This document shows positions 14,692-57,364 of a stretch of DNA of 64,000 nt, in pieces (the first letter of the stretch is position 1; every line of letters starts with the position of its first letter). The stretch is from Myxococcota bacterium. Its GTDB lineage: Bacteria > Myxococcota_A > UBA796 > CAJQPC01. Made by a program: the position numbers and the translations under genes. The stretch spans positions 96,001-160,000 of the forward strand of contig DASCPX010000059.1 of NCBI GenBank assembly GCA_036012755.1, read 5' to 3'. The notes under the pieces were generated by a model, which saw nothing but the letters and a program-made list of their open reading frames with translations, was not told the origin of the DNA and did not search any database.

Positions 14692-15831
14692 TCAGCGGTC
14701 GGCCTTCCAGTTGCGGCGCTGGTCGCTGGAGTAGACGACCTCGACCTCCGCCAGCTCCGAGGTGTGGACGTCACCCTCGTTGCGGAAGCCGCTGGCGTCC
14801 AGGAGCGCCTTCAGGCTGCCCTCGTCGGCCTCGGCCTCGGTGGGCGGCTCGGGGGCGTGCCTCATCTCGAGGGCGGCGAGCAGGTTGTCGTCGCTCCGCC
14901 GAGCCTGATCCGCGAGGTTGTGGAGCACGCTCTCCCACCAGGTCACGCCGGCCTGGCGCGGCGGGTTGCGGAAGTGCTCGGCGTCGATGCGGTAGAGCCA
15001 GCTGGGCTTTCGAGCCACACACGAGGCGGTGCGAGGCCCCGGCTCGACCAGGGCGTTGCATCCGAACTGGCCACCGGCCGCGAGGGTCACGAGTCGCTTT
15101 GCGCCGCCGCGGACATGGCGGAGCACGTCCACCGCGCCGGTCCCGATCAGGTACATCGCGTCCCCTTGCTCCCCCTCCAGGAAGATGACCTCCCCCTCGT
15201 CGACCGACTTGGAGGTGAACGAGGCTGTGAGCGCCAGCACCGCCTCCGGAGGGGCGTGCGCGATCCCGGGCTGCCTCCTCAAGAGCGGCGCGAGCGGGGG
15301 ACAGTCGCCTCCGGACCCGCCCGGTACGAGCTTGCGCCAGGCCTTCACGAGCGCCGAAAGCTCCTGCCTGCTCGGGGCGACCGTGTCGTGTCGCGCTGCC
15401 TTGGCGATCGCGGCGCTGGCCTCTCGCACCCGGCGCACCACCGACAGGGTCGCCACCTTCACGAGGGCCTCGTAGACCGAGCTGCGGGTCTCGCGCAGGG
15501 CGCGGATCTGGTGGGCTGGCAGCGTCGCGATCAGGCTGTCCTCTCTCGCGATCACGTCGGCCGAGTGCACTGCGCCGTGGAAGAAGGCACCCTCCTCGCC
15601 GAGGATGGCCCCCTGGGACAGTGTCTTCAGCTGGTGGTCGCCTACCTGGAGGTAAAAGCCGCCGCTGAGGACGACACCCAGCTCGTGGGCGGCCTGGCCG
15701 CGTGGCCAGAGGACCTGGTCGGCGGCCACCCGCAGCGGATGCCACAGAGGCGCGCAGCGGATCAGGTCCTCCATCGAGGCGGTCTTCATGAGGCCCAGCC
15801 CCGCCAGTTGCTCGTGCGCGATCGTGCCCAT
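14692..15831 (-). CDS. Tandem cyclic-nucleotide-binding domain protein
   Basis: Two cNMP barrels: VLSG...GAILGEE...HSADV, and GEVIFLEGEQGDAMYLI..G...FG..AL..PRTASC. Confidence 0.85.
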   Translation of the reverse strand: MGTIAHEQLAGLGLMKTASMEDLIRCAPLWHPLRVAADQVLWPRGQAAHELGVVLSGGFYLQVGDHQLKTLSQGAILGEEGAFFHGAVHSADVIAREDSLIATLPAHQIRALRETRSSVYEALVKVATLSVVRRVREASAAIAKAARHDTVAPSRQELSALVKAWRKLVPGGSGGDCPPLAPLLRRQPGIAHAPPEAVLALTASFTSKSVDEGEVIFLEGEQGDAMYLIGTGAVDVLRHVRGGAKRLVTLAAGGQFGCNALVEPGPRTASCVARKPSWLYRIDAEHFRNPPRQAGVTWWESVLHNLADQARRSDDNLLAALEMRHAPEPPTEAEADEGSLKALLDASGFRNEGDVHTSELAEVEVVYSSDQRRNWKADR

Positions 15832-15882
15832 CAGCCCGAGTATAGGGGCGTGGTAGCGTCCACTGGTCACGGCCTGAGATCG

Positions 15883-18800: not shown

Positions 18801-19890
18801 CTACTACTTCGACAAGGAGAACCTGCCCTTCTTCGTCGCCGGGGTGATGTGCGCCGCCCATTGCGCCCGCGCCGGAGCCTCTCGGGAGTCCGCCTCGGGC
18901 CTGTCCTATGTCGGCGTGCTCGCGGGCCTGTTCCAGATCGACAGGCTCACCGAGGCCTACTTCCGGCGCAGCCTCGAGGCCGCCAACGAGGTCGGTGATC
19001 CCTGGGCTGTCGCCCGACACTGGGAGAACAAGGCCCACCAGCGGGCGGGCGTCGGGATCTGGCTGGACGAGGAACTCGACGACGCCATCCGCTTCTTCGA
19101 GCTCACCGGCGACCGCCACGACCTCGAGATCTCGACCACCATGAAGGCCCTGATCACCAGCTACCGGGGCCGCTACGCAGAGTCCAAGAGCCTCTACCAG
19201 CGAGTCCTGGCCTCTGCGAAGGGCCACAGCGTCCAGCACACGATCTGGGGCACCTACAAGCCCGGAGAGCTGATGCTCTTCGAGGCGGGCCGCCACGACG
19301 AGGCGCTGCCGCTGATGGAAGAGACCCTGGAGCTCTTGAAGCTCGAGCCGGAGGAGCCCACCGAGATCGCCCTCATGCTGGACATCGGCACCATCCAGCA
19401 CCGCAAGGGAGACCCGCGAGCCTCGGACACCGTCCACGACGCCATGCAGCGCCTCAAGGACGCGCCGCCGAACATCCACGGCATGCTGCCTGCGTTCACC
19501 TTTGGCTGCGGCGTCCAGCTCGACATCTGGGAGGAGGCCCTGGCCGCCGGCGGCGACGTGGCGAAGGCCCGGGACCGCGCCTACTTCGCCAACAAGCAGA
19601 TGGCGATCTTCGCCTTCCTGTTCCCGATGGCGCGAGCGCGCAAGTGGATCATGCAGGCCCGCGCCGCGCTGCTCGACGGCAAGACAGACAAGGCCCGGAA
19701 GCTGCTGGAGAAGGCCAGGGCTCGAGGCGAGGAGCACGACATGCCGCTGGATGTCGGCCTGGCCAACCAGTACCTGGGCCTCTGCGAGCCCGGGGGCAGC
19801 GAGGCACGAGAGAACCTCCTCCGCGACGCGGGAGCGGTGTTCGCCAGCATCGGCGCCAGCCAATACGAGGGCCGCTGCGAAGAGGGGTAG
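15883..19890 (+). CDS. Soluble adenylyl cyclase (ADCY10-like): two class III cyclase domains, a STAND/AAA ATPase and a helical repeat tail
   Basis: Cyclase motifs VDVIGFT, FAGDA, DDKGT and INLSARLM. Walker A GEAGIGKS and Walker B EDGHWLD. STAND motifs GHPLY, RIDRL and FKHALIQD.AY. Confidence 0.9.
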   Translation: METSSTIRTVSSYLSAFHLERLAARRERPAVEGFHGAVLLVDVIGFTQITQRFSEAGARGAEQLSEILNLSFGSIIDAIDRHGGDILTFAGDAVLAVWPAQGAHLEEVVMLAVQAGLEIHDIPTHPDQPLKLRASVGAGKLNAFEVGGLDERWMLVTAGDPVDQVAEADKLCQAGEVMLSTSAWSFVSDRCKGELRRSAVALKSIEYPVEAPGTLDRPEPTIDIEPYMPEVVHRRIGAGQAEFLAEFRNLTVLFITLSDLDPRSAEALDKLHAASRVLQEELDRTQGAVYQFLSDDKGTTLLAAYGLPGMSHEDDALRGTIAAVAIREGLTGVGLRSSIGVATGRLFCGSYGNDTRRQYAIVGTTINLSARLMQACVGDGLLCDEKTRQAVGERGEFEALDPVKAKGIDAPVSVFRPTALKARRHGSSAELIGRAAERAVFTERLGCLGEGVGGVVVIEGEAGIGKSQLLRWVADAATSRGVRVAEGAGDSIETTTGYLMWRQVLDDLVGSDRGNIDALFAEDQRMQQWAPLLEDVAPLGFEPNEVTGAMSGPARAQALAEILVQIVRHAASEQPLLLAVEDGHWLDSASWATLGEVAAKVDEVLVVVSTRPIPEPVPSEYDALRGHESADVLVMETLSPDEAEALVCAKLGVDELPDAVARVLREQAEGHPLYSEELAWNLVETGALHIEDRRARLAIPESALSAMAFPQGIEGVITSRIDRLPQETQLLLKVASVIGRIFSFDVLQAIAPLETESERLEQQATQLVEADLTLPERPKPDLAWIFKHALIQDTAYNLLVFKQRHLLHRSVAEWYEETFSANLAAYYPVLAYHFTLAEVPDKTRQYLDLAGTRALRTGASAEAVSFFRRALALEGGQADTRTTLRQTRWWRSLGLAYYALGQKADARDAMLRTMALSGYPMATSTFGLLLQLPWQYVLQAIYLISPKALLGKTEDEREIASLAADAAQSVSTTYYFDKENLPFFVAGVMCAAHCARAGASRESASGLSYVGVLAGLFQIDRLTEAYFRRSLEAANEVGDPWAVARHWENKAHQRAGVGIWLDEELDDAIRFFELTGDRHDLEISTTMKALITSYRGRYAESKSLYQRVLASAKGHSVQHTIWGTYKPGELMLFEAGRHDEALPLMEETLELLKLEPEEPTEIALMLDIGTIQHRKGDPRASDTVHDAMQRLKDAPPNIHGMLPAFTFGCGVQLDIWEEALAAGGDVAKARDRAYFANKQMAIFAFLFPMARARKWIMQARAALLDGKTDKARKLLEKARARGEEHDMPLDVGLANQYLGLCEPGGSEARENLLRDAGAVFASIGASQYEGRCEEG

Positions 19891-41681: not shown

Positions 41682-41719
41682 GCTCCTGAATCTTGGACAC
41701 ACCAGGGACACAACAAAGC
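41682..41719 (+). repeat. 38-bp direct repeat, copy A
   Basis: GCTCCTGAATCTTGGACACACCAGGGACACAACAAAGC, with 1 mismatch to copy B. Confidence 0.95.
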
Positions 41720-41759
41720 AGCCATTCCCCGCAATTAGCAGGCACTGGCCATCATTTCG

Positions 41760-42503
41760 CTACATGGCACACGCACTCATATCCGCGGCGACTTCAAATG
41801 AGAATCTGGTGCCCCCGGGTGTGTCGCCCATATGATACGACATCAGCTGGTAGGCCTCGACATCCGCTTTGATGACCCCCCATAGCCAACCGATGAATCC
41901 TCCGTACTCATCCTCGTCCTCAATCACGATCGCAATCGCGAATTCCGTGGACTTGATCGCAAGGGCCATGGTCTCCAAGACCACGGCCGGAGCATCTTGC
42001 TCCACAGCTTTCGAGAAGTAGACCCAACTGAGCTTGTACAAAGCATAGTTGATCACATTGCCGTCCCCACCGAGTGTCGACGCCGCCGTTTCGTAATCCG
42101 AGACGAGCCGAACCCACTCCTCGTCCCAGCCTATCAACTCCGCACTCCCAGCCAGAGACCCTGTTGACCTGGCTTGAGCTTCCACCGCCTGCTGCACCGC
42201 CTCGTCCTCCGTCATGCCCTCGGGAATACGGAAGTCGCAATGGGCCAGTCCGATCCTGAGCGAGGCTACAAAGCAGTCTTCCTCCGCGAGGTCTGGGTCA
42301 ATCTCGTAGTTCCTGAGACAAGTCAGGGCGGTGTTGTGTCTCTCGGCAGCCTCGAGCAGGGCCGAAGTATCCGTTGGCGAGTCGCTTCTGGTCGGCTCGT
42401 CGAGCCGCGAGGCGGAATCGCGGACGGCGTCTGTCTTGTCGGTATCGTTGATGGAGGGACAGGCGACAAGCAGAAGGAAGAAGGGTAGAACTCTCATGGT
42501 CAT
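41760..42503 (-). CDS. Hypothetical lipoprotein (island cargo)
   Basis: MRVLPFFLLLVAC lipobox and lower GC3. Bracketed by the direct repeats. Confidence 0.75.
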   Translation of the reverse strand: MTMRVLPFFLLLVACPSINDTDKTDAVRDSASRLDEPTRSDSPTDTSALLEAAERHNTALTCLRNYEIDPDLAEEDCFVASLRIGLAHCDFRIPEGMTEDEAVQQAVEAQARSTGSLAGSAELIGWDEEWVRLVSDYETAASTLGGDGNVINYALYKLSWVYFSKAVEQDAPAVVLETMALAIKSTEFAIAIVIEDEDEYGGFIGWLWGVIKADVEAYQLMSYHMGDTPGGTRFSFEVAADMSACAM

Positions 42504-42634: not shown

Positions 42635-42672
42635 GCTCCTGAATCTTGGACACACCACGGACACAACAAAGC
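42635..42672 (+). repeat. 38-bp direct repeat, copy B
   Basis: GCTCCTGAATCTTGGACACACCACGGACACAACAAAGC, containing GGACACA twice at 11-nt spacing. Confidence 0.95.
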
Positions 42673-42785
42673 CGACATTAGGCGGTATTGGCGAGCATTA
42701 GCCACCACTGCCCGAAACTACAAGCCCCGGTGATCACAGGCGAAACACCCTAAATACCTGTAATCACGACCCCTGGGTCAGGGTG

Positions 42786-44521: not shown

Positions 44522-45568
44522 CTATTCCGTCATCAAGAGCTTGCGGTAGCGCTGATCACCTTCGACCGCGTCGAGGCGGCGGAGGTCCTCGATCCCCGAG
44601 AGATCGCGAAGCTCGGGCAGCGCCTCCAGGTGGAGTGTGCTGATCTCGACGAGGTCCTCGAGGCCATCGAGCGAGGTCAGCTCGGGGATCCCAGCGAGCG
44701 AGAGTCGGTTCAGCCGCGCGAGCCGTGGACCCCTCAGGGATCTCAGCGAGGGCATGCCGACGATCTCCAACGTGTCACCGACGTGGACGAGCCCGTCCAG
44801 GAAGCGGAGGTCGCGATTGGCGAGATCGCGCAGGCTGAGGTCACCGTCGACCCTCGTCAGGCGCCCGAGATCGATGGTCCCGGACAGACCGCTCAGCCGC
44901 ACGTCGCCCTCGACGAGGACGAGCTTGTCGAGCTGGACGTAGGCGGAGCCCAGGTCCTGGAGGGTCACCTCGGAGGCGGCGTAGAGGTCGACCGACAGCT
45001 GTCGGAGGCGGGGGGCCTCCGCGACGACGAGGCCTCCGGAGAGCTCCGGCATCGTGAGCTCGACGTCCTCCAGGACGGGGTTTCCGACGAGGCTCAGGCG
45101 AGAGGTCGAGAAGCCCTCGAGCCGGACCTCCCGCAGCGCCGGCATGCCCTCGATCTCCAAGGCAGCGGCGGAGCGCAGGCACTCCAGCTCCGAGAGGTCG
45201 ACGAGCTCCGGGATGCCGACGAGGCGCAGGGTGCCGCTGAGCTCGCCGTAGCGCTCGGCGAACTCGGACAGCGCATCGCTCGAAGAGAAGACGAGGTCAC
45301 CCACGAAGAGCCCGCGCTCGTCGCAGGCCAGCGGGGTCTCCCCGGTGTCTCCGGTGTCGTCGCCGAGGTGCTCGCTGTCCAGGAAGTAGCCGGAGTCCAG
45401 GGGTTCGCTGTCGTGGAGGGGCTCGCCGGTGTCTGCGCTGTCGAGGAAGGCGGTGTCCGCCGTGTCCGCCGTGTCCGCCGTGTCCGCCGTGTCTGCCGTG
45501 TCCGTGGCGGTCTCGGCGAGGGCGGCACCCGCCAGCGCGAGGACGAAGAGAGGAAGGAGGCGCTTCAT
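44522..45568 (-). CDS. Secreted receptor-L-domain/LRR-like protein with a DTA tether
   Basis: Signal MKRLLPLFVLALAGAALA, DTADTA repeats, and L..L..V.G.L.I repeats. Confidence 0.75.
   Translation of the reverse strand: MKRLLPLFVLALAGAALAETATDTADTADTADTADTADTAFLDSADTGEPLHDSEPLDSGYFLDSEHLGDDTGDTGETPLACDERGLFVGDLVFSSSDALSEFAERYGELSGTLRLVGIPELVDLSELECLRSAAALEIEGMPALREVRLEGFSTSRLSLVGNPVLEDVELTMPELSGGLVVAEAPRLRQLSVDLYAASEVTLQDLGSAYVQLDKLVLVEGDVRLSGLSGTIDLGRLTRVDGDLSLRDLANRDLRFLDGLVHVGDTLEIVGMPSLRSLRGPRLARLNRLSLAGIPELTSLDGLEDLVEISTLHLEALPELRDLSGIEDLRRLDAVEGDQRYRKLLMTE
45453..45503 (-). repeat. Coding 9-bp tandem repeat (GTGTCCGCC)n encoding DTA
   Basis: Read directly from the sequence. Confidence 0.9.
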
Positions 45569-46914
45569 GCCTGAGCTCCAGGTCTGGCCCATCGACCCTG
45601 GCGGTACGCGATGGTTCCGACCAGTGCCTTGACGACGAAGGAAAGAGGGAAGGCTGCCCAGATGCCGGCTATGCCCATGTTCAGGGTGAACCCGAGCACG
45701 TAGCTGAGCGGAATCTGGACCAGCAGGGTGGCGAAGGCGTTGATCGACAGGGAGATGTCGGTGCGCCCGGAGCCCGAGAACGCGCTCCCGTAGGCGAGCC
45801 AGACGCCCACGGGCGGCATGGACAGGGCCAGCATGAGGATCCATGTGAGCGTCGCTTCGCCCAGCGGGGTGTCCGCCGAGACGTCGAAGATGGTGAGGAT
45901 CGGGGTGTCGAGGGCCCAGAGCAGGATGCCGAGGGTGCTCATGACGCCGAAGCAGAGGGTCATGGCGGCCCGCACGATCCGCCGGGCCTCCGCGACCGAG
46001 TCCGCTCCGAGCGCGTTCCCGACCATCGCCGCCGCGGACTGGCTGATCGCGAGACCCGGGACGAAGGCCAGGGCCTGGACTCGCAGGCCCACCCCGTGGG
46101 CGGCCACCGCGACCTGGTCGATGCGCGACAGCATGGCGATGATGCTCAGGAAGCCAGCGTTGAGCACGATCATGTCCAGGGCGGCGGGGCTGCCGACCCG
46201 GACCAGGTCTCGCGTGAGCCGGCCGTCGATCCGCGCCATGCGCAGCCGGAGCGTGACCCCGGGGACCGCGCCCTTGCGGATCGCCACCACCATCGCGACC
46301 ACGGCCAGGGCCTGGGCCAGGAGCGTGCCGTATGCCGCGCCCTGGACTCCCAGGGACGGCAGGCCCCAGTGTCCGAGGATCAGGCCGTAGTTGAAGACGA
46401 CGTTGGCGGCGTTCATGCCCAGCGCGATGACGAAGGCCAGGCGCGTGTTGCCCACCCCGCGCAGCACGGCCCCAAACAGGATGTTGAGGTAGTTGAAGAC
46501 GACACCCACCAACAACGGCAGGAGGTACGCCAGCGCCAGCTCCTGGTGGCTGCCCCGCGCCCCGAGGACGTAGAGCAGGCCAGGCGCGGCGAGGGTTCCG
46601 ACCACCGCGACGCCCACCCCGAGGAGCACGGTCAGCTGGGTCGACTGGTGGAGGATGTGGATGACCCGCTCGTGGTCCCTCGCGCCGTGGGCCCTGGAGA
46701 CGAAGGCGACGCTCCCGACGGTGAGCCCGAGCATCGCCACCATCAGCAGGAAGAGCAGCTGGAAGGCGTAGGACATGCCCGCGAGCGCGGGCTCCGGATC
46801 GGGCAGGCGCCCCACCATCGCCGTGTCGACGAAGAGCGCCAGCACATTGAGCACGTTGAGCCCGATGACCGGTAGAGCCAGATCGAGAAGCCTGGCCGGG
46901 ACGGATGACCGCAC
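45565..46914 (-). CDS. MATE family efflux transporter
   Basis: Motifs LALP, VDTAMVGRL, LRGVGNTR, N.VFN..LI.G..G.P.LGVQGAA and about 12 TM helices. Confidence 0.93.
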   Translation of the reverse strand: MRSSVPARLLDLALPVIGLNVLNVLALFVDTAMVGRLPDPEPALAGMSYAFQLLFLLMVAMLGLTVGSVAFVSRAHGARDHERVIHILHQSTQLTVLLGVGVAVVGTLAAPGLLYVLGARGSHQELALAYLLPLLVGVVFNYLNILFGAVLRGVGNTRLAFVIALGMNAANVVFNYGLILGHWGLPSLGVQGAAYGTLLAQALAVVAMVVAIRKGAVPGVTLRLRMARIDGRLTRDLVRVGSPAALDMIVLNAGFLSIIAMLSRIDQVAVAAHGVGLRVQALAFVPGLAISQSAAAMVGNALGADSVAEARRIVRAAMTLCFGVMSTLGILLWALDTPILTIFDVSADTPLGEATLTWILMLALSMPPVGVWLAYGSAFSGSGRTDISLSINAFATLLVQIPLSYVLGFTLNMGIAGIWAAFPLSFVVKALVGTIAYRQGRWARPGAQA

Positions 46915-46957
46915 GCTGCGCGCATAACGTCGTCCGGTCTGGCGTAGGCTCTGTGTC

Positions 46958-48268
46958 GTGGCCGGGGTTCCGCTGACACCTGCCGAGCGGGCCGCTGCAA
47001 AGCCTGTGCTGCTCGCGCTGCCCCCCGTCGAGGGGCTCCCGCCTGTCCCGCGGCTGCTGGTCGCGGACGGGCTGGCGCTGGCCGGGCGCAAGTACGCCAG
47101 CGGTGACCAGGAGCCCAACGTCGCCGGCGACCTCTGGCTGATGACCGAGGGCTGCGTGGCGCTCCGGAGCACGGGTCACTTCCACCGCGTTCTCCGCGGG
47201 CCCACCGTGCTCTCCCCCAGCGACGTGGGCTTCGGCGGGCCCGACATCCTCGTGCTCCAGGAGGGCACGGTGCTCTGCCGGATGGCGGTCGCCAACGCCC
47301 TCCTGTTCAACGCGATGAGCTCCGGGTGGGCCCACGGCATGCTCGACTCGGCGGTCGCCGATCTCGAGGCCACGCGCGCGGCGCGAGAGGCGACCTTCGC
47401 CGGCATGGCGGACTACTTCGAGGCCTCTGGCGCGCTCATGAAGGGGCCCTACCGGAGCACCACCGTGCGGCTCGTGTTCGTCGTCGTCGAGGACGATCCG
47501 CCCCCGCCGCTTCCGTGGAACGTGTTCCCCGCCCTGCCTGGCAGCAAGCGGTGGATCCGGGCCTTCTCGCACTACACGAACTTCAAGGCCGCCGATGCAC
47601 CATCTGACTACGAGTACCAGGAGTTGGCCCAGCTGATCCCCTGCGTCACGACCTCGGGCCTGGGCTTCCACAGTGGCCGGATGTTCCCGGACGGGGTGAT
47701 GCCGACCGCGGTCGGTCGCGAACTCTACGCCTTCCCGAAGCGCTGCGGCGAGGTCTGGATGGACGACCATGGGGGTGGGGCGGCGTTCCAGGGCAAGTTC
47801 ATGTTCCACGCCGAGTGGAGCGGCGGCACGGTCCAGCCGGTCCACGAGTGGATGTCGGACATGACCGAGGCCTTCCTCCCTGGCTGGGCTGGCCGGGTGC
47901 CGTCGGGGTTCATGGGGTTGTTCACCCGCCTGACCGGGCCCGTAATCTCCCGGATCGGGATTCCCCTGCGCGTCTTCACTGAGCGGAAGAGCATGGACCG
48001 CTCGCCGATGACGCCGCTCGGGAACAACGAGATGGTCAGGGCGCCCTTCCGTTTCACCATCAAGGAGGCCCGCTCGCTGAGTCTCGACTGGCTCTACGAC
48101 GTGAACCGCTTCTCGCTGAAGGGGATCGCGGCTTTCGAGGTCGAGGTCGACATCAACCTCCACGAGTCCTACGCGGTCCGAGATCGGACAGGGCTGTTCC
48201 GGGCCCTCCGAAACCCCTGGCTCGCGGCCCAGGTCCCCTTTCGGACCTTTCTCGAGCTCCTGCCGTGA
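46958..48268 (+). CDS. cNMP-binding-like plus acetoacetate decarboxylase-like fusion protein, paralogue 1
   Basis: N-terminal barrel LWLMTEGCV..RVLRGP. ADC motifs GPY, YQELAQLIP and AVGRELYAFPKR. Confidence 0.8.
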   Translation: MAGVPLTPAERAAAKPVLLALPPVEGLPPVPRLLVADGLALAGRKYASGDQEPNVAGDLWLMTEGCVALRSTGHFHRVLRGPTVLSPSDVGFGGPDILVLQEGTVLCRMAVANALLFNAMSSGWAHGMLDSAVADLEATRAAREATFAGMADYFEASGALMKGPYRSTTVRLVFVVVEDDPPPPLPWNVFPALPGSKRWIRAFSHYTNFKAADAPSDYEYQELAQLIPCVTTSGLGFHSGRMFPDGVMPTAVGRELYAFPKRCGEVWMDDHGGGAAFQGKFMFHAEWSGGTVQPVHEWMSDMTEAFLPGWAGRVPSGFMGLFTRLTGPVISRIGIPLRVFTERKSMDRSPMTPLGNNEMVRAPFRFTIKEARSLSLDWLYDVNRFSLKGIAAFEVEVDINLHESYAVRDRTGLFRALRNPWLAAQVPFRTFLELLP

Positions 48269-49428
48269 GCGCGCCGGCCATCCTCTTCACCTTTCCGCCC
48301 TTCACGAGCGTGGACGTCTCGCACTGGAGCACCTTTGCGGACCTCTGCATCGAGGTTCCCTTTGGTCCCGGCGAGGTCCACCAGCTCGAGGAGGACTACG
48401 TCTGCGTCCTCGTCTCCGGCAAGGCGGTGCTGCATCGCTTCGCCGACACCGAGCGCCTCGTGGAGGGACCCATCGTGCTCGATGTCGTCCATCCAGGGCT
48501 CGGGCGCCCGGCGCGCTTTCACACCCTGGAGCCAGGAGGGACGCTGGTCTGGGTGTTGCGCAGCGACCTGGACGCCTACACCGACGTGAGCGAGCGCCTC
48601 GCCGTGACCCTCGAGCAGACTCGGGAGGAGCGGGCCGGCCTCGCAGCGCTGGGGGATCGCCAGACCTGGGTGGGGCCCTCGACCGGCTCGGTCCTTGCTG
48701 ACGAACCCTATGTCGGGGAGCTCGACTACATCCTCATCGGCTTGCCCGGTGTGCTCACCGAGCTGGTCCCCTCGCTGCCCCGGGGGCTGGTGCCGCTCTT
48801 CGACGACGAACGGGTCGTGCTGGTCTTCGGCATCCATGGGCCGTCGTCTCTGTTCTCCGGCCACAATCCTCCGGCGGAGGGTGGCTACGGTGCGGTGCTG
48901 GTTCCGGCCTCCTGGTCTGGAGAAAAGGGGCTGTACTGCGCCAGTGTGTGGACCGGGCAGCTGATGTACGTCCACGTACTGCGCGAGCTCTATGGGCTCC
49001 TCGGCCGGGAGGGAGAGGTCTACGATCCGAAGATCCCCTCTTACCCCCAGCGCCTGATGGCCTGGGGTCGGCGGCTGCGACTGAAGGCGGAGTGGCTCAA
49101 GGAGGTCTCCCCGGATCTGACCCACTGGGAGGACATGGTGGGCATGCCCTGGGACCCCACGCGCCTGCCGCTCCAGTGGTGCTTCGAGCGCCATGGCTTC
49201 GGAGTCGGTCCCGGCTTCTTCCGGGGCTGCAAGGGGGACCAGGAGCTCAGCCTCTTGAGCCTCGAGGAGCTCGAGATCCCCAGAGTCGAGAGCATGGACG
49301 GTGTCACGCTCGTCGATCCGGTGGAGCCGATCTACGGCTTCCGCCTCCAGGCTGACTTCCGCCTCGCCGATCCTGTTCCCCTCGACCGTCAGATCCTCGC
49401 CATCACCGCGGCCTGGCTGGTCGGATGA
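48265..49428 (+). CDS. cNMP-like plus ADC-like fusion, paralogue 2 (catalytic Glu and Lys absent)
   Basis: N-terminal PPF...FGPGE...VLVSGKA...LVEGP. Then EPY, GLYC and LRELYGLLGR. GTGA-coupled. Confidence 0.7.
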   Translation: MSAPAILFTFPPFTSVDVSHWSTFADLCIEVPFGPGEVHQLEEDYVCVLVSGKAVLHRFADTERLVEGPIVLDVVHPGLGRPARFHTLEPGGTLVWVLRSDLDAYTDVSERLAVTLEQTREERAGLAALGDRQTWVGPSTGSVLADEPYVGELDYILIGLPGVLTELVPSLPRGLVPLFDDERVVLVFGIHGPSSLFSGHNPPAEGGYGAVLVPASWSGEKGLYCASVWTGQLMYVHVLRELYGLLGREGEVYDPKIPSYPQRLMAWGRRLRLKAEWLKEVSPDLTHWEDMVGMPWDPTRLPLQWCFERHGFGVGPGFFRGCKGDQELSLLSLEELEIPRVESMDGVTLVDPVEPIYGFRLQADFRLADPVPLDRQILAITAAWLVG

Positions 49429-50735
49429 CCTTCCCCACCGTCCCAGCCGACTACCTCGCCCAGCTCGGCGAGCACCCGCTGTTCCAGGATCTCGATCCCC
49501 TCCTGCTCGCCGATCTCTCCCAGGTCGTCCTCTTGGATGCAGGCGCGCCCTACCCGGTCCCCACCGAGCGCATCGTCCTGGTCATCGCGGGACGCGTCGC
49601 CGTGTCGAACGCCGACCGCTTCGAGCGCCTCGCCGGGCCAGAGGACGTCATCGGCCTCATCCGTCCCGGGCACGACCTCACCCTCGAGGCCCTGGAGGAC
49701 TCTGCCCTCCTGCTGCTCGGTCCCATCGAGCTCGGCGGAGTGTTGGACCAGCGGAGGCGCACCCTCATCCACAACGTCACCACCCTCGCCGAGCTGGAGG
49801 TCCATCGCATCCAGCTCGAGCGGCGCGAGATCGAGGCCTCCCTGGAGGACTTCTTCGACCCGACCACCGGCGAGGCCGTGCAGGCGCCCTACGTCGCGCT
49901 GGGCGCCAAGCTCCTGATGGTCGTCGCGCGTGACACCCAGTTCAGCAAGCTCCCGCCTGGGCTTCCGGGGATACCGCTCTCCGACGGCCGCTTCCTCCTG
50001 ACCTTCTGCAAGTTCCCCCACTTCGGGCCCGAAGGGGGCATCGGAGCTTCCTACGAGGAGTGCATCGTGCTCGTCCCCTGCTGGGATCTCGGCGGAGGGG
50101 GGCCAGGTCTCTACTGTCCGGAGGTCTGGCCGGAGAGCATGATGGCGGTCATCGTCGGGAGCGAGCTCTTCGGCTTCGCCAAGCGCTACGGGCGCGTCAC
50201 GCTGAGGGACGACCACGCCCACGTCGACATCGACGGGACCCAGGCCTACGTCCACTGGACCGACGAGAAGGAGATCCCTGTCCACGAGTACCTCGGCGAG
50301 CTCGTCGGGGCGATCCTGGGAGAGGACGACCCGGAGGGCCGGCTCATGGAGCGGCTCACGAAGCTCGGCGCCCGTCTCACGGCCGGGCCGATGATCCGGA
50401 GCGGCACTGCGCTCCCGCTCTACGTTCGTCGGAGCGTCGGTCGACGGGACCTCGGCACGGTGGACTGGGACGTCGACGAGCTCGCCTGGGTGCCCTTCGA
50501 TGTGCTCGGGTACAGCCGGCTCGCGGAGCTCGGCGGCCTCGATCTCAGGGGCTGGGGTCGGTTCACCTTCGTCAAGCCGGAGCGTGCCTTCCTGGCCGAG
50601 GTCGACATGGCGATGTACGCGGCACGGCCGGTCCGGGACCTCGTAGACGGTCCCGTGGCAAAGATGCGCTCGCAGTGGATGCGGTGGGGTGTCAGAAAGG
50701 AGAGGTTGTGGGCGACATTCCGTCGATCCTCCTAG
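49425..50735 (+). CDS. cNMP-like plus ADC-like fusion, paralogue 3
   Basis: N-terminal HPLFQDL...VIAGRV...LAGPEDVIG...LEALEDS. Then APY, YEECIVLVP, GLYCPE and GSELFGFAKR. ATGA-coupled. Confidence 0.8.
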   Translation: MTFPTVPADYLAQLGEHPLFQDLDPLLLADLSQVVLLDAGAPYPVPTERIVLVIAGRVAVSNADRFERLAGPEDVIGLIRPGHDLTLEALEDSALLLLGPIELGGVLDQRRRTLIHNVTTLAELEVHRIQLERREIEASLEDFFDPTTGEAVQAPYVALGAKLLMVVARDTQFSKLPPGLPGIPLSDGRFLLTFCKFPHFGPEGGIGASYEECIVLVPCWDLGGGGPGLYCPEVWPESMMAVIVGSELFGFAKRYGRVTLRDDHAHVDIDGTQAYVHWTDEKEIPVHEYLGELVGAILGEDDPEGRLMERLTKLGARLTAGPMIRSGTALPLYVRRSVGRRDLGTVDWDVDELAWVPFDVLGYSRLAELGGLDLRGWGRFTFVKPERAFLAEVDMAMYAARPVRDLVDGPVAKMRSQWMRWGVRKERLWATFRRSS

Positions 50736-51775
50736 GGCTGAGGGGCGCCCTCCCGGCGCTGGTCGCCCTGCCCGAGGACTCGGTGCTCGATGCCGACGCC
50801 AACCTGCTCCTGCACGAACTCGGCGTCGGGGACGAGCTGGACGTGGATCCCGACCGCATCGCCCTGCTCTCGAGCGGCCAGCTCGCGCTCTACTCGGCGG
50901 ACCGCTTCGATCGCATCTGCGCGGGGCCCGACGTCTGCACGTGGTGGAGCGACGTCCAGACCCGGCTCGAGGCCCTGTCCGCCGCCGTCGTGGTGTCTTT
51001 CGATCGACAGGCCGTGGACTCCCACCGGAGCACCGTCGATTCAGAGGTCGTCGCTCGCTTCGCCGCCGCCGCGAACGCCCTCGCCGATCAGCGGCTGCTG
51101 CGGGACCGTCTACGCGAGCGCTTTCGCTACGGCGGGGACGACCCCTACCTGCGGGTGCGGGAGCCCTACACGGGTCGCATCGACAGCCGGCAGTTCTTCG
51201 TCCGCCCGAAGTCCTGGCCGTGGCGCGGCAAGCACCCGGACCGCGCCCTGTTCACGGTGGCCGAGTACGAGCAGGTGGGCAGCGCGGGGAGCGACTCAGG
51301 CGAAGGCACCGACTACCGCCAGGTGACGCTCTGGGTGCCCATGGACGACGGGCTGCGGCTGGTCATGGCCTGGGCCGACGACGCTCGCGCCGTGCGGGTC
51401 GTGCGCGAGCTCTTCGGTTTCAAGACCCGCTTCGGCCGCATCGAGCCGCTCGACGACTCCAGCCTCATGGTCGCGGTCGATGGCCAGCCGCGTCTCATCG
51501 CGAGGGGGGTCCTCGGCGCGTCCATCCCCGGGCCGGCCTGGCGTAGCGACGTCGGCCTCCCCGAGGGCACGCTGCGGCTCTACTCTGGCGAGGCGCGGAG
51601 CCGCTGGACGGGCCAGCCGCCGCAGTCGGCCTTCAGGTTGAACGAGGGGCGGGCGTGGCGGCTCCAGGACACCTCGATCGAGCTCCTCGAGACGGGCTTC
51701 GGGGCGGGCTTCGAGGTCATCAGCGCCACCGCGATCCAGGGCCGGTTCCAGATCGTCCCAGTGCAGAACAGCTGA
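50708..51775 (+). CDS. cNMP-like plus ADC-like fusion, paralogue 4 (degenerate active site)
   Basis: GTG after AAGGAGAGG. Contains LLSSGQL..ADRFDRICAGP...LEALS, EPY, YRQVTLWVP and VRELFGFKTR. Confidence 0.72.
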   Translation: MGDIPSILLGLRGALPALVALPEDSVLDADANLLLHELGVGDELDVDPDRIALLSSGQLALYSADRFDRICAGPDVCTWWSDVQTRLEALSAAVVVSFDRQAVDSHRSTVDSEVVARFAAAANALADQRLLRDRLRERFRYGGDDPYLRVREPYTGRIDSRQFFVRPKSWPWRGKHPDRALFTVAEYEQVGSAGSDSGEGTDYRQVTLWVPMDDGLRLVMAWADDARAVRVVRELFGFKTRFGRIEPLDDSSLMVAVDGQPRLIARGVLGASIPGPAWRSDVGLPEGTLRLYSGEARSRWTGQPPQSAFRLNEGRAWRLQDTSIELLETGFGAGFEVISATAIQGRFQIVPVQNS

Positions 51776-53362
51776 GTGTCCCCGGTCGGTCACAACATCG
51801 AGATGAGGCCTGGCGACGCCATCGGCTTCTTCCGTCCGGACCACGGGCCCATCGACCTCGTCGCGATCGAGCCGAGCCGCGTCTTCGCATTCGACTACGA
51901 GGACCTGCTGCGGGAGCAGCCCGAGCAGGCTGCACGGATGCGAGCGCTCTTCTTTGACGAAGCCGTGGAGCTCCGTCGCCGTCGCCGTCGCCTGGAGCTC
52001 GGCCTTGCGAGCTACCTGGTGAGGCCTGGAGCCCGGATCATGCCGGGGCCCTATCACTCCCGCGACGTGCGCATGGACCTCTTCCTGGTGGACCTCGTGG
52101 AGCCCGTCGACTGTCCCGAGTACATGGTCCGGGTCTTCGAGCGCAGGGCGCTCATGGTCGCCGCCAGCTTCCCCAGCTTCGGCACCTCTGATCTCGTCGT
52201 GGATCCCTTCGTCTACGCGGAGATCGCCCTGTTCGTGCCGATGCTGCACCCCGCTCGGGGCCCGGTGTTGTACTGCCCGGAGCTCCGCCCGGACAACCTG
52301 ATGGCGCTCGTCACCGGGCGCGAGATGCACGGCTTCCCCAAGCGCTTCGCCCAGGCGGTCCTGGCCGAGGATGATGGCCTGACCCTCTGCAGCCACCCGC
52401 GGCGCGGGCGCGTGCTCGCATGCATCGAGCGCTGGCTGGATGTCCCCGGGCACCTCGTGCTGGCTCGGGAGCGCCTCTGCCAGCCGGCCCGCTGGGGCCA
52501 CTTCCGGGACGGGTCGTGGACCCAGAGGCCCCACCCCGAGTTGTTTCCGGATTGCCGCGAGCTCCTGCTGCTGCTCGATGGTCGGCTGGAGTTGGTGCTC
52601 GCCAGCCGAGGAAAGGGCCTCGGTGGATCCATCGATGGTGCCTTCGGCCTTCCGATCCGTGATGGCGCAGTCACCGTCGCCTCCTGGTGGCAGGTCCACG
52701 GCTTCCGCTCGGGTCCGCCCATCCGGCGCGTCGTCTTCAACCGACTGGCTTTCTCCTCCGGCGAGGCCACTTGGCTGAGGAACACGAGGCTCGACGCGCT
52801 GTCCGGGTACTGGACTGAGCAGAAGGCGCTGGCTGCTGTGCGCATCGAGGGAAGGTGCAAGTGGATCCCCCAGCAGGATCCAGAACGTCCTCCCGACCGC
52901 CACCGCTTGAGGCATCCTTGGCGTCCTTGGAGGCACCGATGTTCCTTCTGCTGGCCTGTACGCAGCCCACCGAGCGTGCGCCCTCCGATCCCCCGACGCT
53001 CGCGGCCATCGAGGGCGAGGACAACGGGATCACGACCCTGGCGGCGCAGGCGGTGGATCAGAGCCCCGACTGGCTCGCCGACGATCTGCAGCTCCAGTTC
53101 GAGCAGCTCGACTCGACCGTCCAGGACGACCTCGCCGTGCTGCTCGTCGACCTCGACGATCCCTACCTCTACGACGAGGTGGCCTTCGCCATCGCGCACT
53201 CCTCGCCAGAGGATCTCACCAGCGGCGGCTTCGTCCCGGGTCTGCTCGTCGAGAACGCCCAGTGGATCTACGACATCGAGCCGCTGTTGGACTACGTCAC
53301 CCTCGTCGAGTACGGCGAGCCGGGCGACCCGGACCACTACACGACCACGAGCTACGTCGTGA
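51776..53362 (+). CDS. Partial cNMP-like plus ADC-like fusion, paralogue 5 (true coding region probably ends near 52900)
   Basis: Contains RPGDAIG...VAIEPS, GPY, YAEIALFVP, LYCPE and TGREMHGFPKR. The ORF overlaps the next gene by 424 nt. Confidence 0.72.
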   Translation: MSPVGHNIEMRPGDAIGFFRPDHGPIDLVAIEPSRVFAFDYEDLLREQPEQAARMRALFFDEAVELRRRRRRLELGLASYLVRPGARIMPGPYHSRDVRMDLFLVDLVEPVDCPEYMVRVFERRALMVAASFPSFGTSDLVVDPFVYAEIALFVPMLHPARGPVLYCPELRPDNLMALVTGREMHGFPKRFAQAVLAEDDGLTLCSHPRRGRVLACIERWLDVPGHLVLARERLCQPARWGHFRDGSWTQRPHPELFPDCRELLLLLDGRLELVLASRGKGLGGSIDGAFGLPIRDGAVTVASWWQVHGFRSGPPIRRVVFNRLAFSSGEATWLRNTRLDALSGYWTEQKALAAVRIEGRCKWIPQQDPERPPDRHRLRHPWRPWRHRCSFCWPVRSPPSVRPPIPRRSRPSRARTTGSRPWRRRRWIRAPTGSPTICSSSSSSSTRPSRTTSPCCSSTSTIPTSTTRWPSPSRTPRQRISPAAASSRVCSSRTPSGSTTSSRCWTTSPSSSTASRATRTTTRPRATS

Positions 53363-54756
53363 GCGACGCCGACGGGGAGCTCTTCGAGGTCGAGATCGAT
53401 CCGGAGGTCTACTACTGGTTCGTCGTCCACCCCAGCATCGAGGACGAGAGCCCCTGGTACGTCGAGGCCTGGGACGAGTGCAAGCGCAGCTCCCTGGAGT
53501 GTCCCTCGAGCCCCGAGGAGGGCGGCACCTTCTGGCGTCACTTCCTCTGGGAGGGGGCCCGGGACACCTGTCCCGAGGACGACCAGTGCCCGGTGCTCGA
53601 TGAGATCCTGCCTGGTCTGGAGGTGGCTTGGACCAGCGGCTCCTACGCAGACGAGGCCGGCGCCATCAGCCAGATCGCCCGCTTCATGCTCTACAACGAC
53701 GAGGACTTCGGTCGCTGGTTGACCTTCGGCGCATACGACGAGCGCAGCATCCAGCCCAACCGGATCTACGGCCTGGGTCGCGGGAACTGCGGCGAGTGGG
53801 CCGACATGACGACCGCGCTCACGCGCACTGCGCTCATTCCCAACTACAACGTCGCCCCCGCGTCCTGGGACCACACCTGGAACGAGTTCTACGACGCCTA
53901 CGAGGACCGCTGGGTCGCATGGGAGCCCGTCAACTTCTGGCTCGACCACGCCTACGGGGCTCCCTACAGCAACTACGCCACCCGCGGTGACTCACAGGTC
54001 TTCAACGTCACGACCCAGTACATCGAGGACACCTTCACGATGCAGTACGTCGTGACCGACGCCGACGGGCTGCCTGTCGACGGGGCCTCTGTGGCGCTCA
54101 TCACCCCCTGGGACGATGGCTGGGGCTACGCCGGCGAGACCTCCACCGACATCCACGGTGTCGCGACCTTCGAGGTTCGAGCCGAGTCCGACTACGCCTT
54201 CCGTGTCGATCACCCGACCCTGGGTGGCTACCCCGACGAGAGCTTCACCTACGGCTCCCAGGGCATCGCGATCGGCGAGACGGACATCACCGAGGTGAGC
54301 CTGCCCGGCTCCCGCGAGCCCTTGCCGGTGCGCACCCTGGAGCCCCTGGACGTCGCCGCCCCGAGCGCCGCGTTGTCCATCTCGGGCACGGTCGACTCCT
54401 CCCGGGTGTACACCACCTCCTGGCGCTTCGGGGAGCAGTTCTCCGTCGAGGACGAGCCCATCGAGGTGAGCTGGTTCCTGACCGACGACCTCGGCTACGA
54501 GGCCTTCCGGGCCGGCGCGGACCACGTCGTCTTCGCCGAGGGCAGCCTGGGCGAGGAGGCGAGCCTGGAGCTGGCCTTCGCCAAGAGCTGGAGGCTGGTC
54601 TTCGTGAACGAGTCGGTCGTCTCCACCGCAGCGGTGGGTGAGATCGAGCTCGGGGTCTCGCCGACGGAGGATGCCCGCTGGGAGGGCTCGCTCGAGCACG
54701 GTGAGCTCCTGCGGTTGTTGCCTGGCGAGCACGTCGCCGTGGCGCTGGACAAGTGA
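52939..54756 (+). CDS. Transglutaminase-like (PNGase-type Cys-His) lipoprotein
   Basis: GGAGG SD and MFLLLAC. Contains GRGNCGEWA and DHTWNEFY...W..WEP, then a carboxypeptidase-regulatory-like beta domain. Confidence 0.85.
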   Translation: MFLLLACTQPTERAPSDPPTLAAIEGEDNGITTLAAQAVDQSPDWLADDLQLQFEQLDSTVQDDLAVLLVDLDDPYLYDEVAFAIAHSSPEDLTSGGFVPGLLVENAQWIYDIEPLLDYVTLVEYGEPGDPDHYTTTSYVVSDADGELFEVEIDPEVYYWFVVHPSIEDESPWYVEAWDECKRSSLECPSSPEEGGTFWRHFLWEGARDTCPEDDQCPVLDEILPGLEVAWTSGSYADEAGAISQIARFMLYNDEDFGRWLTFGAYDERSIQPNRIYGLGRGNCGEWADMTTALTRTALIPNYNVAPASWDHTWNEFYDAYEDRWVAWEPVNFWLDHAYGAPYSNYATRGDSQVFNVTTQYIEDTFTMQYVVTDADGLPVDGASVALITPWDDGWGYAGETSTDIHGVATFEVRAESDYAFRVDHPTLGGYPDESFTYGSQGIAIGETDITEVSLPGSREPLPVRTLEPLDVAAPSAALSISGTVDSSRVYTTSWRFGEQFSVEDEPIEVSWFLTDDLGYEAFRAGADHVVFAEGSLGEEASLELAFAKSWRLVFVNESVVSTAAVGEIELGVSPTEDARWEGSLEHGELLRLLPGEHVAVALDK

Positions 54757-55364
54757 TCCTGGTCCTGGTCGCTTGTGTCGAGACCGTCGAGGACCTCGAC
54801 AGCGCGGTCACCGACAGCGAGCCCGACAGCGACACGGACGCCGATGCCGACGCCGATGCCGACGCGGATGGCGACAGCGACAGCGACACGGACTCGCCCT
54901 ATGCCGGAGTGCTCCTGGAGCCGCCCCTGGCGCCCCCGGAGTTCTCTGTGGAGAACCAGGACCGGGAGTCGCGAGATGCCGACTGGCTCGCTGGCCACGG
55001 CACGGTCCTGTGGTTCTTCCGGAACGCTGGCTCCTCGTGAACGAACGACGGTTGCGGGTACCGCGACCTCCAGAGTGACTTCGACGCCCTGGGCGTGAGC
55101 ATCGTCGCGGTCGGCTTCGCGGAGCCCGACGCCACCCGGGCCTGGGCGGACCAGCTCGGCTACGACTACGAGATCTGGACCGACGCCGACCACGTCATCG
55201 CGGAGCACTACGACGTGCTCGTCGACTGGGAGGAGGTCCCGATGCGTCACGCCTTCATCCTGGGCGAGGACGCTCATGCGGTGATCTGGCACGAGGGCGC
55301 GGTGTCCACTGGCGCCGATCCCGAGGCCGTGCTCTCCGACTGCGAGCAGCTCTTCGGCCAGTGA
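54753..55364 (+). CDS. Selenocysteine-containing peroxiredoxin (BCP/PrxQ)-like lipoprotein (Sec at TGA 55038-55040)
   Basis: ORFs 54753-55040 and 55095-55364 are in frame. Read-through gives APPEFSVENQD...VLWFFRNAGSS-U-TNDGCGYRD, comparable to BCP FYP.A.TPGCT.EAC.FRD. A SECIS-like hairpin follows. Confidence 0.85.
55041..55068 (+). promoter_or_regulatory. Bacterial SECIS-like element
   Basis: Stem GGTTGCG (55050-56), loop GGTAC, stem CGCGACC (55062-68), starting 9 nt after the TGA. Confidence 0.7.
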
Positions 55365-55414
55365 GCCGCGGCCCTGGGCCGCCCCCTGACTCGCTGGAGG
55401 CTATAGATGAGGTC

Positions 55415-57364
55415 GTGCTCCTCGCCCTCCTCGCCTGTCGTCCGGCCTCGCAGGCCGAGCGCAGCGTCATCGTCATCGTCGTCGACGGTGTGCGCGTCGA
55501 GGAGTCGCTCTCCGAAGAGGTGAGCGAGCTCTCGGGGTTGGCCGGCCGGGACCACTGGCCGGGCATCTGGAGCGAGCTCGCGCCGCATGGGACCGTGCTC
55601 ACGAACGTGCGAAACCAGGGCACGACGATCACCGCGCCCGCTCACGCGACCATGTTCACCGGAGCCAGGATCCCCCTCGGGAACATGGCCGTCGACGAGG
55701 GGGTCGGGCTCTATCGCCCTGAGAGGCCGACCATCGTCGAGGAGGCGCGCCGACAGCTGGACCTCGACGCGGACGAGGTGATGGTGATGGCGAACCAGTC
55801 ACTGATCTCGCCGATGACGTGGTCGATGATGCCCGGCTACGGCGAGGAGCTCGGCGCTACCTGGTTCCACGTCGTGTCCTCGCCTGGCAGCGAGCGTCCG
55901 GCGCCAGAGGACAGCCAGGTCTTCAGCACCCTCGAGCGGCAGCTGGAGGCGGGCGAGCCTCGGTTGGTGGTGGCGAACCTCAAGGCGGTCGACCGAGTCG
56001 GACACTACGGCGATGGGGTCGAGGACTACCTCGAGGCGGTCGAGAAGGTCGACGGACCGCTCGTGTCCCTCTGGGCGCACATCCAGGACGACCCCTCCTA
56101 CGCAGGCAACACCGTGCTGATCGTGACCTCTGATCACGGCCGGCATCGCCTCGGCGATCCCGGCGGAGACGACTACTGGCGCAACCACGGGACCGCGGTC
56201 GAGGGGGACCGGCAGATCCCGGTGATCCTGCTGGGAGCTGGCGTCGAAGCCGGCATCGAGGACGACACGCCCTACGCGCTGTCGGACCTCGCCCCCACCG
56301 TCGCCGCGTTGTTGGAGATCGATCTGCCCTGGGCGGAGGGCCTGCCGATGAACGTCGCGCTGGTCGAGGATGTCGAGGGGCGCAGCGGCGTGGCCCAGGT
56401 CGCGGCGGCTGGCGACGAGCTCGTGCTGGTGGAGTACGCCTCTGACCCCGGCGCTCGCAGCGCCGTGACCTGGAACGGAGAGCTGGTGTCCTCTGACGAG
56501 GCATGGGCCGCAGAGGCCCCAGCCGTCGTCGCGGACGAGGAGGTCGCGTACGCCTGCTGGCGGGAGCTGATCCAGGACGAGGAGGCCTCGCCCTGGGTGC
56601 CGCGCTGCGCCATGCGCGGGCCGAGCGGTCTCACGGACCTGGAGCCCCCCGTCGACGAGGTCAACGCCCACTGGCGACCTGACATGCGGCTCTCCGACGG
56701 CGGCCTGGCGCTGAGCTTCGTCGACAACCCGGACGACATCGCCCAGCCTGGCATCGACGGCGAGGTCGGCCCGGTCTGGTTCAGGCTGGTCGCCGGCGCT
56801 TGGGAGTCTGGCCGGGATCCTGACCCCGCGCTGCGCTACCCCACCGACGCGGTCACTGTCGAGGTGTCGGAGGGGCAGCTCACCGCGTTTATCGCCAGCA
56901 CCTACAGCAATGACTCCCGGGGGGACCGTCGCGTCTACGTGCAGCGGTCGAGCTGGGCGGAGGAGGGCTTCGCCGTCGAGGCGCCCGAGGCTGTGGATCT
57001 GTCCGCTGTCGCGCCGACGGAGGGCGACTGGCGGGTCGAGCGCCCCGCGCTCCGCGTCGATGGGGAAACGGTCGAGCTGCTCGTCGTCGGGGTCACGGGC
57101 GACGACCGCGTCGTCCTCCGGGTCCAGAGTCCGGACGGGGGCGTCAGCTGGAACGCCGCCAACATCGTGGTGAGCGACGCCTCGCTGCCACTCCACCTCG
57201 GCCCGCTCTGGGCTGGGGTGGAGCCCGCCTGGGTGAGCGCCGCGGGGCTCTGCACTCGCCTCGGCTGCGAGGACCCCGGGGGACCGGTGAAGGACTGGGC
57301 CTGGGATGGCTCGGAGCTGGTCGCGGTCGTCGGGGATGACGAGGGCGGCTGGGCCCTTCGATAG
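55415..57364 (+). CDS. Alkaline phosphatase/sulfatase superfamily lipoprotein with a C-terminal beta-propeller-like region
   Basis: Motifs VVDGVR, TITAPAHATMFTG, DRVGH, TSDHG and DLAPT. Start is GTG 55415 (MLLALLAC) or the coupled GTG 55361. Confidence 0.82.
   Translation: MLLALLACRPASQAERSVIVIVVDGVRVEESLSEEVSELSGLAGRDHWPGIWSELAPHGTVLTNVRNQGTTITAPAHATMFTGARIPLGNMAVDEGVGLYRPERPTIVEEARRQLDLDADEVMVMANQSLISPMTWSMMPGYGEELGATWFHVVSSPGSERPAPEDSQVFSTLERQLEAGEPRLVVANLKAVDRVGHYGDGVEDYLEAVEKVDGPLVSLWAHIQDDPSYAGNTVLIVTSDHGRHRLGDPGGDDYWRNHGTAVEGDRQIPVILLGAGVEAGIEDDTPYALSDLAPTVAALLEIDLPWAEGLPMNVALVEDVEGRSGVAQVAAAGDELVLVEYASDPGARSAVTWNGELVSSDEAWAAEAPAVVADEEVAYACWRELIQDEEASPWVPRCAMRGPSGLTDLEPPVDEVNAHWRPDMRLSDGGLALSFVDNPDDIAQPGIDGEVGPVWFRLVAGAWESGRDPDPALRYPTDAVTVEVSEGQLTAFIASTYSNDSRGDRRVYVQRSSWAEEGFAVEAPEAVDLSAVAPTEGDWRVERPALRVDGETVELLVVGVTGDDRVVLRVQSPDGGVSWNAANIVVSDASLPLHLGPLWAGVEPAWVSAAGLCTRLGCEDPGGPVKDWAWDGSELVAVVGDDEGGWALR

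Follow-up and report, generated by a model that had tools for sequence, protein, structure and literature searches.

The window analysed here, a 64,000-nucleotide stretch of contig DASCPX010000059.1 from a Myxococcota bacterium, contains an array of five paralogous open reading frames (ORFs) on the + strand, P1 to P5 (46958 to 53362), that belong to a family in which a cyclic nucleotide monophosphate (cNMP)-binding fold is joined to an acetoacetate decarboxylase (ADC) fold. We call a unit live where it keeps the Glu and Lys of the catalytic columns and dead where it lacks them. The array is laid out as three live-then-dead pairs, namely P1/P2, P3/P4 and a fused pair that is broken as P5. Our preferred reading, to which we give a probability of about 0.55, is that the intact pairs, P1·P2 and P3·P4, each form a heterodimer with a single active site, in which imine/enamine chemistry acts on a carbonyl compound resembling a lipid or isoprenoid. 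The pairing is proposed from the alternation of units with and without the Lys, the recurrence of live+dead fusions, the retention of P2 and P4, and a model of the P1·P2 complex.

P1 (46958-48268; 436 aa), P2 (48265-49428; 387 aa), P3 (49425-50735; 436 aa), P4 (50708-51775; 355 aa) and the P5 ORF (51776-53362; 528 aa) overlap or abut. The overlaps are 4 nt for P1/P2 and P2/P3 and 28 nt for P3/P4, and P5 starts directly after the P4 stop. P4 begins at a GTG preceded by AGGAG, and its orthologue in a syntenic array elsewhere (L109) uses the identical start codon. A scan of 46700-55500 for sigma-70 promoters and terminators returned no match, nor did an Rfam scan of the window. The paralogues are distant, sharing 22-36% identity in local alignments, and were linked by phmmer at 1e-23 (P1-P3), 5e-15 (P3-P5), 1e-12 (P3-P4) and 2e-8 (P2-P3). 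An initial reading of this DNA, made from the sequence alone and referred to below as the sequence-only reading, described a packed array of five paralogous genes. The packing and the paralogy stand, but there is no intact fifth copy, as P5 is a deletion remnant.

Both domains and the helix joining them are found within one unit in each of P1 to P4, and P5 retains only the second half of the cNMP-fold domain. Single-chain AlphaFold2 models cover P2 (predicted local distance difference test score, pLDDT, 65.2) and P3 (pLDDT 68.7), and the ADC fold of P1, P4 and P5 was assigned by homology. In both models a long helix connects a cNMP-binding fold to an ADC fold, which is the arrangement of barrel, helical linker and ADC domain that the sequence-only reading had proposed. 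Residues 6-127 of the P3 model matched a cNMP-binding domain with a Z score of 12.5 (root-mean-square deviation, rmsd, 2.8; 119 residues aligned), and residues 141-408 matched the acetoacetate decarboxylase AADase (PDB 3bh2) with a Z score of 16.7 (rmsd 3.8; 219 aligned). For the P2 model, the corresponding values were 12.1 (rmsd 3.4; 128 aligned) for the cNMP fold and 18.4 (rmsd 4.1; 220 aligned) for the ADC fold. In searches with Pfam, ADC matched P3 and P5, with P1 falling just below the cut-off (28.2 vs 29.8 bits), but not P2 or P4, and cNMP_binding matched none of the five. A profile of the cNMP domain matched PKG, PKA and CRP at 1e-14 to 1e-8, and a profile of the dead units aligned with that of the canonical members of the family over 263 columns at 99.6% probability. 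When P3 was used to query the PDB sequences with phmmer, no significant match was returned, and an NCBIfam scan gave no family assignment.

Catalytic residues were located by aligning a profile of 14 ADC cores to AADase 3bh2, and AADase numbering is read from that alignment. The Glu of the family's YxE motif aligns with E76, which we take to have a role in AADase catalysis, and the Lys of its FPK motif aligns with K115. Both residues are kept in P1 (E222/K261), P3 (E212/K253) and the first half of P5 (E149/K189), whereas the two columns hold Tyr and Gly in P2 and Gln and Thr in P4, and both residues are absent from the second half of the fusion from which P5 descends. This is the distribution given by the sequence-only reading, in which P1, P3 and P5 keep the pair, P2 has lost both residues and P4 is altered. 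The 'YGA' cited there for P2 is shifted by two residues relative to the Glu column, although P2 has no Glu in either register. The GRE motif is replaced by GSE/GGE in P3 and its entire orthologue group. K115 is described as the low-pKa catalytic lysine of AADase (PMC11388336).

With P5 restored to two units, the order along the array is live, dead, live, dead, live+dead. The intact P5 orthologues P0096 and P0150 each carry a live unit followed by a dead unit in one chain. The live-then-dead order was also found in fusions in genome G001 (L025 and L026) and on contig C43 of the host's own genome, and in adjacent genes in G001 (L027), and another group has the dead-then-live order (L029 and L030). 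Among the top 150 hidden Markov model (HMM) hits, 13 were two-unit proteins, comprising six live+dead, four live+live and three whose second unit is live and whose first was not matched; none was seen to be dead+dead (0/13). Several of the 13 are the G001 loci, so these counts overlap and are not independent.

Comparison with P0096, which is 779 aa long and has two units, the first with the Glu and Lys and the second lacking them, revealed the extent of the damage to P5. Only residues 60-254 (71% identity) and 598-761 (57%) of P0096 are matched, and P5 lacks approximately 59 codons at its 5' end, an internal stretch of approximately 345 residues and the stop codon. The internal deletion is in frame, with its junction near 52382-52396. 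Where P0096 stops, P5 has TGT (52940-52942), the first bases of which are shared with the ATG of the next gene. The homologous part therefore spans 51776..52942 and is followed by 140 codons of read-through (52943..53362) that overlap the next gene in a different frame and match neither P0096 nor the family. The frame indicated by GC content at third codon positions (GC3) changes at approximately 52900. Judged by this comparison, P5 is what is left of a fusion of one live and one dead unit, and as the deletion junction duplicates strands around the motif, a working P5 is unlikely. Assembly error was ruled out as the source of the damage: contigs X1 (whole stretch) and X2 (50459-53400), from two studies, cross it with no difference, though one or other may be the source sample, and locus L108 is 99.96% identical. 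Runs X9 and X11 cover the stretch in short pieces only and do not bear on the P5 junctions.

A model of P1 with P2, run for this pair only on alignments made for this analysis, scored 0.81 (0.71, 0.81 and 0.81 in three runs), while the best of three controls scored 0.00. The mark used for this score is reached by 116/157 solved complexes and by 2/215 mismatched pairs. At least 67% of contacts were common to the runs, and partner pLDDT was at least 67. The predicted interface brings together residues 125-140 of P1 and 108-126 of P2, which lie in the C-helices, and the GRE/Lys motif regions of both ADC domains. On this model, the division into catalytic and structural subunits proposed by the sequence-only reading would hold up. 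We envisage that each intact pair would form a heterodimer in which P1 or P3 alone binds the carbonyl substrate as a Schiff base, with P2 as the predicted structural partner of P1 and P4 as the likely partner of P3. The dimer is predicted to be CRP-like, with the C-helices wound into a coiled coil and the two ADC barrels paired beneath it. The Lys would form the imine and the Glu would act as acid/base, in a step that may be an aldol/retro-aldol, isomerase or (de)hydratase reaction.

The N-terminal domains share with CRP/FNR and other cNMP-binding domains a beta-barrel and a long C-helix, which is predicted to form a coiled-coil dimer. They differ in that the array proteins have no helix-turn-helix and their phosphate-binding cassette is degenerate. 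In 55 canonical rows of the family alignment, most cassettes are 23 residues long; the Arg is present in 25/55 and G-E in 1/55, and Anaerolineae rows often have His. In P1 to P5 it is 18-21 residues, and all five lack both G-E and R-[ST]-A, as had been noted from the sequence; P2 has an Arg in the appropriate column, but neither G-E nor S/T-A. With cassettes this short and degenerate, the proposal in the sequence-only reading that a cyclic nucleotide gates these proteins is unsupported, for cAMP and cGMP alike, though they may bind some other ligand. The cNMP domain in the array is likely a dimerisation handle that would no longer bind cAMP or cGMP. In an Anaerolineae clade (L081-L098), His stands in place of the cassette Arg throughout, possibly for a different ligand.

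Searching other genomes for the array found it in synteny at L109 and, with frameshifts and lacking P4, in genome G002. L109 has P1 to P3 followed by 210 codons from the start of P4, in unchanged order and with 61, 60, 60 and 54% identity, respectively, and a further P1 orthologue, P0028, is 68% identical. Ratios of non-synonymous to synonymous substitution (dN/dS; Nei-Gojobori) against L109, a single comparison in which synonymous sites are near saturation at high GC3, were 0.37 for P1, 0.42 for P2, 0.43 for P3 and 0.47 for P4. The control was a MATE transporter gene (45565..46887, - strand) that lies divergently 70 bp upstream of P1 and is syntenic in both L109 and G002; it gave 0.19. On these values, selection has retained P2 and P4 to much the same degree as P1 and P3.

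Family genes that are frameshifted or truncated were found in the host's own genome (C70:266786-268321, C147:43611-45155 and C47:40891-42521), in G001 (L028) and in G002 (L034 and L036), and open copies are also present in the host's genome (C43:45146-47317 and C112:51207-52625). Programmed frameshifting was set aside, as the breaks fall at differing places across genomes. The three genomes of the genus contain 9, 13 and 12 family matches, and the other 19 family genomes contain 0-2. When the dead-unit profile was run against 154 genomes of the order, matches were strong only in the host genus, with weak matches in four others. In our reading, the array arose when the family expanded throughout this genus, in which copies are still being gained and lost; the expansion is partly in decay.

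With respect to substrate, the array resembles AADase (PF06314) in its fold and in having Glu and Lys at the E76 and K115 columns in P1, P3 and P5. It differs from AADase in adding the N-terminal cNMP-fold domain and dead partners, and in scoring 25.9 against the 150-bit cut-off of the NCBIfam acetoacetate decarboxylase model PRK02265. Arg29 of AADase is presumably its carboxylate site; the column holds Arg in 0/55 canonical rows, and Val, Ala and Val in P1, P3 and P5, respectively. Compared with MppR, Sbi00515 and Swit_4259, which are enzymes of the ADC-like superfamily (MppR and Sbi00515 of an alpha-keto-acid type), the array has an extra domain, and two positions of the Sbi00515 motif, the Gln and the Arg that precedes a Gly, are hydrophobic (Tyr/Phe/His and Val/Thr, respectively). 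We assume that this Arg and Gln, which precede the Lys, bind carboxylate in Sbi00515. As equivalents of neither these residues nor Arg29 are present, we infer a neutral carbonyl substrate, likely lipid- or isoprenoid-like and handled by Schiff-base chemistry. The keto acid suggested by the sequence-only reading is doubtful.

The fusion of the two folds is not confined to this array. A word-indexed protein search found just three relatives, and an HMM search recovered the family, which comprises well over 100 clusters when grouped at 50% identity. Of the 150 best HMM hits, 127 span both domains and 113 of those have the Lys motif (113/127), and the ESM Atlas contains an 80-member ADC/cNMP cluster. 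The architecture is already in databases, under automatic names (at NCBI, 'acetoacetate decarboxylase family protein'). The sequence-only reading knew of no described system with this five-fold arrangement; we found no published fusion of a cNMP fold to an ADC fold in a search that left most subscription papers beyond reach and excluded supplements, but the fusion itself is widespread. The array has its architecture and motifs in common with this uncharacterised family. However, canonical members have the Glu in 55/55 and the Lys in 54/55 rows, mostly keep a full-length cassette, and are usually single-copy beside a flavoprotein gene, while the array is tandem, half dead and short in the cassette.

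We confirmed 67 family loci in GTDB genomes, with titles mostly from Myxococcota/Deltaproteobacteria or Anaerolineae. From this range and the labels of sequencing runs, the host is likely a marine myxococcotan. Neighbours were counted at the best 58 of these loci (9 weak or ADC-only loci were left out), some of them related and so not independent. At 33/58 loci, a gene for a flavoprotein of the amino-oxidase family is found on the same strand no more than 1 kb away, and 7/58 have a geranylgeranyl-reductase-like gene. The neighbouring flavoproteins are nearest to HpnE, yet score far below its cut-off. One unit is fused to a flavoprotein (P0098), a second flavoprotein fusion occupies a 1032-codon frame (L072), and a further unit is fused to an S-adenosylmethionine methyltransferase (P0049). 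NXD1/all0736, which carries an ADC-family label, is reported to be tied to carotenoid metabolism and enriched in lipid droplets (PMC12923008). To that extent NXD1, which we liken to the family by description only, offers a precedent for an isoprenoid role. The isoprenoid reading draws on the neighbours of canonical genes and on this precedent, and not on the array locus. Separately, we read a Rieske-like CxH/CxxH insert in the sequence of flavoproteins encoded at L105:3-1652 and at G000 C87:48540-50162, upstream of hemE-/hemH-like genes; in G001 a flavoprotein with such an insert lies 3.7 kb from a family gene.

Several observations weigh against the heterodimer reading. The passing P1·P2 score may arise because the pair resembles CRP and ADC homodimers, and it does not bear on specificity. 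A dead unit stands alone at C59:80879-82237 (L040), 60 kb from the array and with no adjacent live gene. The flavoprotein gene was not found beside the array, and its homologues are on contigs C70, C74 and C87 of the same genome. In G002, the syntenic array (L021, C33 7496-12332) is frameshifted in P1, P2 and P5, and P3 runs into P5 with P4 missing. Trees were built from 111 rows and from 45 rows, the latter omitting 66 rows and the motif columns. In these trees a branch (Shimodaira-Hasegawa-like approximate likelihood ratio test support 97, 88 and 91) sets apart the 11-15 downstream units that are dead, but long branches meet. Approximately unbiased (AU) tests failed to reject sister relationships for P1+P2, P3+P4 and the P5 halves (p-AU 0.58, 0.45 and 0.43), and a single array clade was likewise not rejected (p-AU 0.16). 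The trees do not establish a single origin of the dead units, as AU tests reject none of the alternatives (p 0.16-0.58).

Some of these points would be expected if each paralogue were an independent homodimer, with P1 and P3 enzymes for different substrates, P2 and P4 serving in binding or regulation, and the alternation a by-product of duplication. Single-copy canonical members must self-associate if they are dimeric, the orphan dead unit has persisted with orthologues (P0135 and P0146), the tree tests cannot separate the histories, and the P1·P2 score does not speak to specificity. However, live and dead units have repeatedly been joined in single chains, in both orders, with no dead+dead fusion seen, and genes within pairs are translationally coupled. 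The counterpart of the orphan in a matching neighbourhood of G001 (L025) is a live+dead fusion, and by that comparison the live half seems to have been lost at L040. We regard independent homodimers as a possible but rather improbable account. Another account, which we consider unlikely, takes the array to be a relic of the genus-wide expansion that is now decaying, and its dead copies to be pseudogenes in progress with no role. P5 is broken, other family copies are damaged, the array dN/dS is approximately twice that of the MATE gene, and the G002 frameshifts are limited to family genes, with the flanking genes open. Against this, the frames of P1 to P4 have remained open while the proteins diverged by approximately 40%, and dN/dS is below 0.5 for live and dead units alike. 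Least probable, and in our view very unlikely, is the model of the sequence-only reading, in which the five products together make up a single hetero-oligomeric Schiff-base enzyme that is gated by a cyclic nucleotide and acts on keto acids. The tight, operon-like packing and both folds are as it requires, and higher oligomers occur among ADC-fold enzymes. But P5 has lost both of its ends and an internal part, P4 is missing in G002, and neither the cassettes nor the Arg29 position retain the residues for such ligands. As P5 derives from a live+dead fusion, the unit is the pair, and a five-part complex is unlikely.

Elsewhere in the window, the gene that follows P5 (52939..54756, + strand) is lipoprotein-like, with weak transglutaminase-like and Ig-like matches, and lies outside the system. 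It is followed by a single frame (54753-55364, + strand) with one in-frame TGA (55038-55040) at the position of the peroxidatic Cys of AhpC/TSA peroxiredoxins. The sequence after the TGA matches AhpC-TSA, the genome has a selA match above the cut-off, and the product is likely a selenoprotein lipoprotein. A pair of 73-bp repeats (41682-41754 and 42635-42707; 81% identity) flanks a low-GC3 gene (41760-42503). A large adenylate/guanylate cyclase-AAA-tetratricopeptide repeat protein is encoded 27 kb upstream of the array (14764-19887, + strand), with no link to it shown.

Beyond the heterodimer reading itself, we tentatively suggest that one genus may have turned a homodimer into several obligate enzyme-pseudoenzyme heterodimers. 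The C-helix coiled coil could then be a pairing code that keeps P1·P2 apart from P3·P4, and the dead subunit could shape substrate choice or sense a ligand other than cAMP, in what might be an undescribed Schiff-base family for lipid or isoprenoid carbonyls. The host is uncultured and parts of the expansion are decaying, which limits the importance of this case. Should a ligand regulate the canonical members, the ADC superfamily would gain a case of allosteric control, and a new step would be placed next to HpnE-like flavoproteins. The array, with its matched live and dead subunits, is a testable case of homodimer-to-heterodimer evolution.

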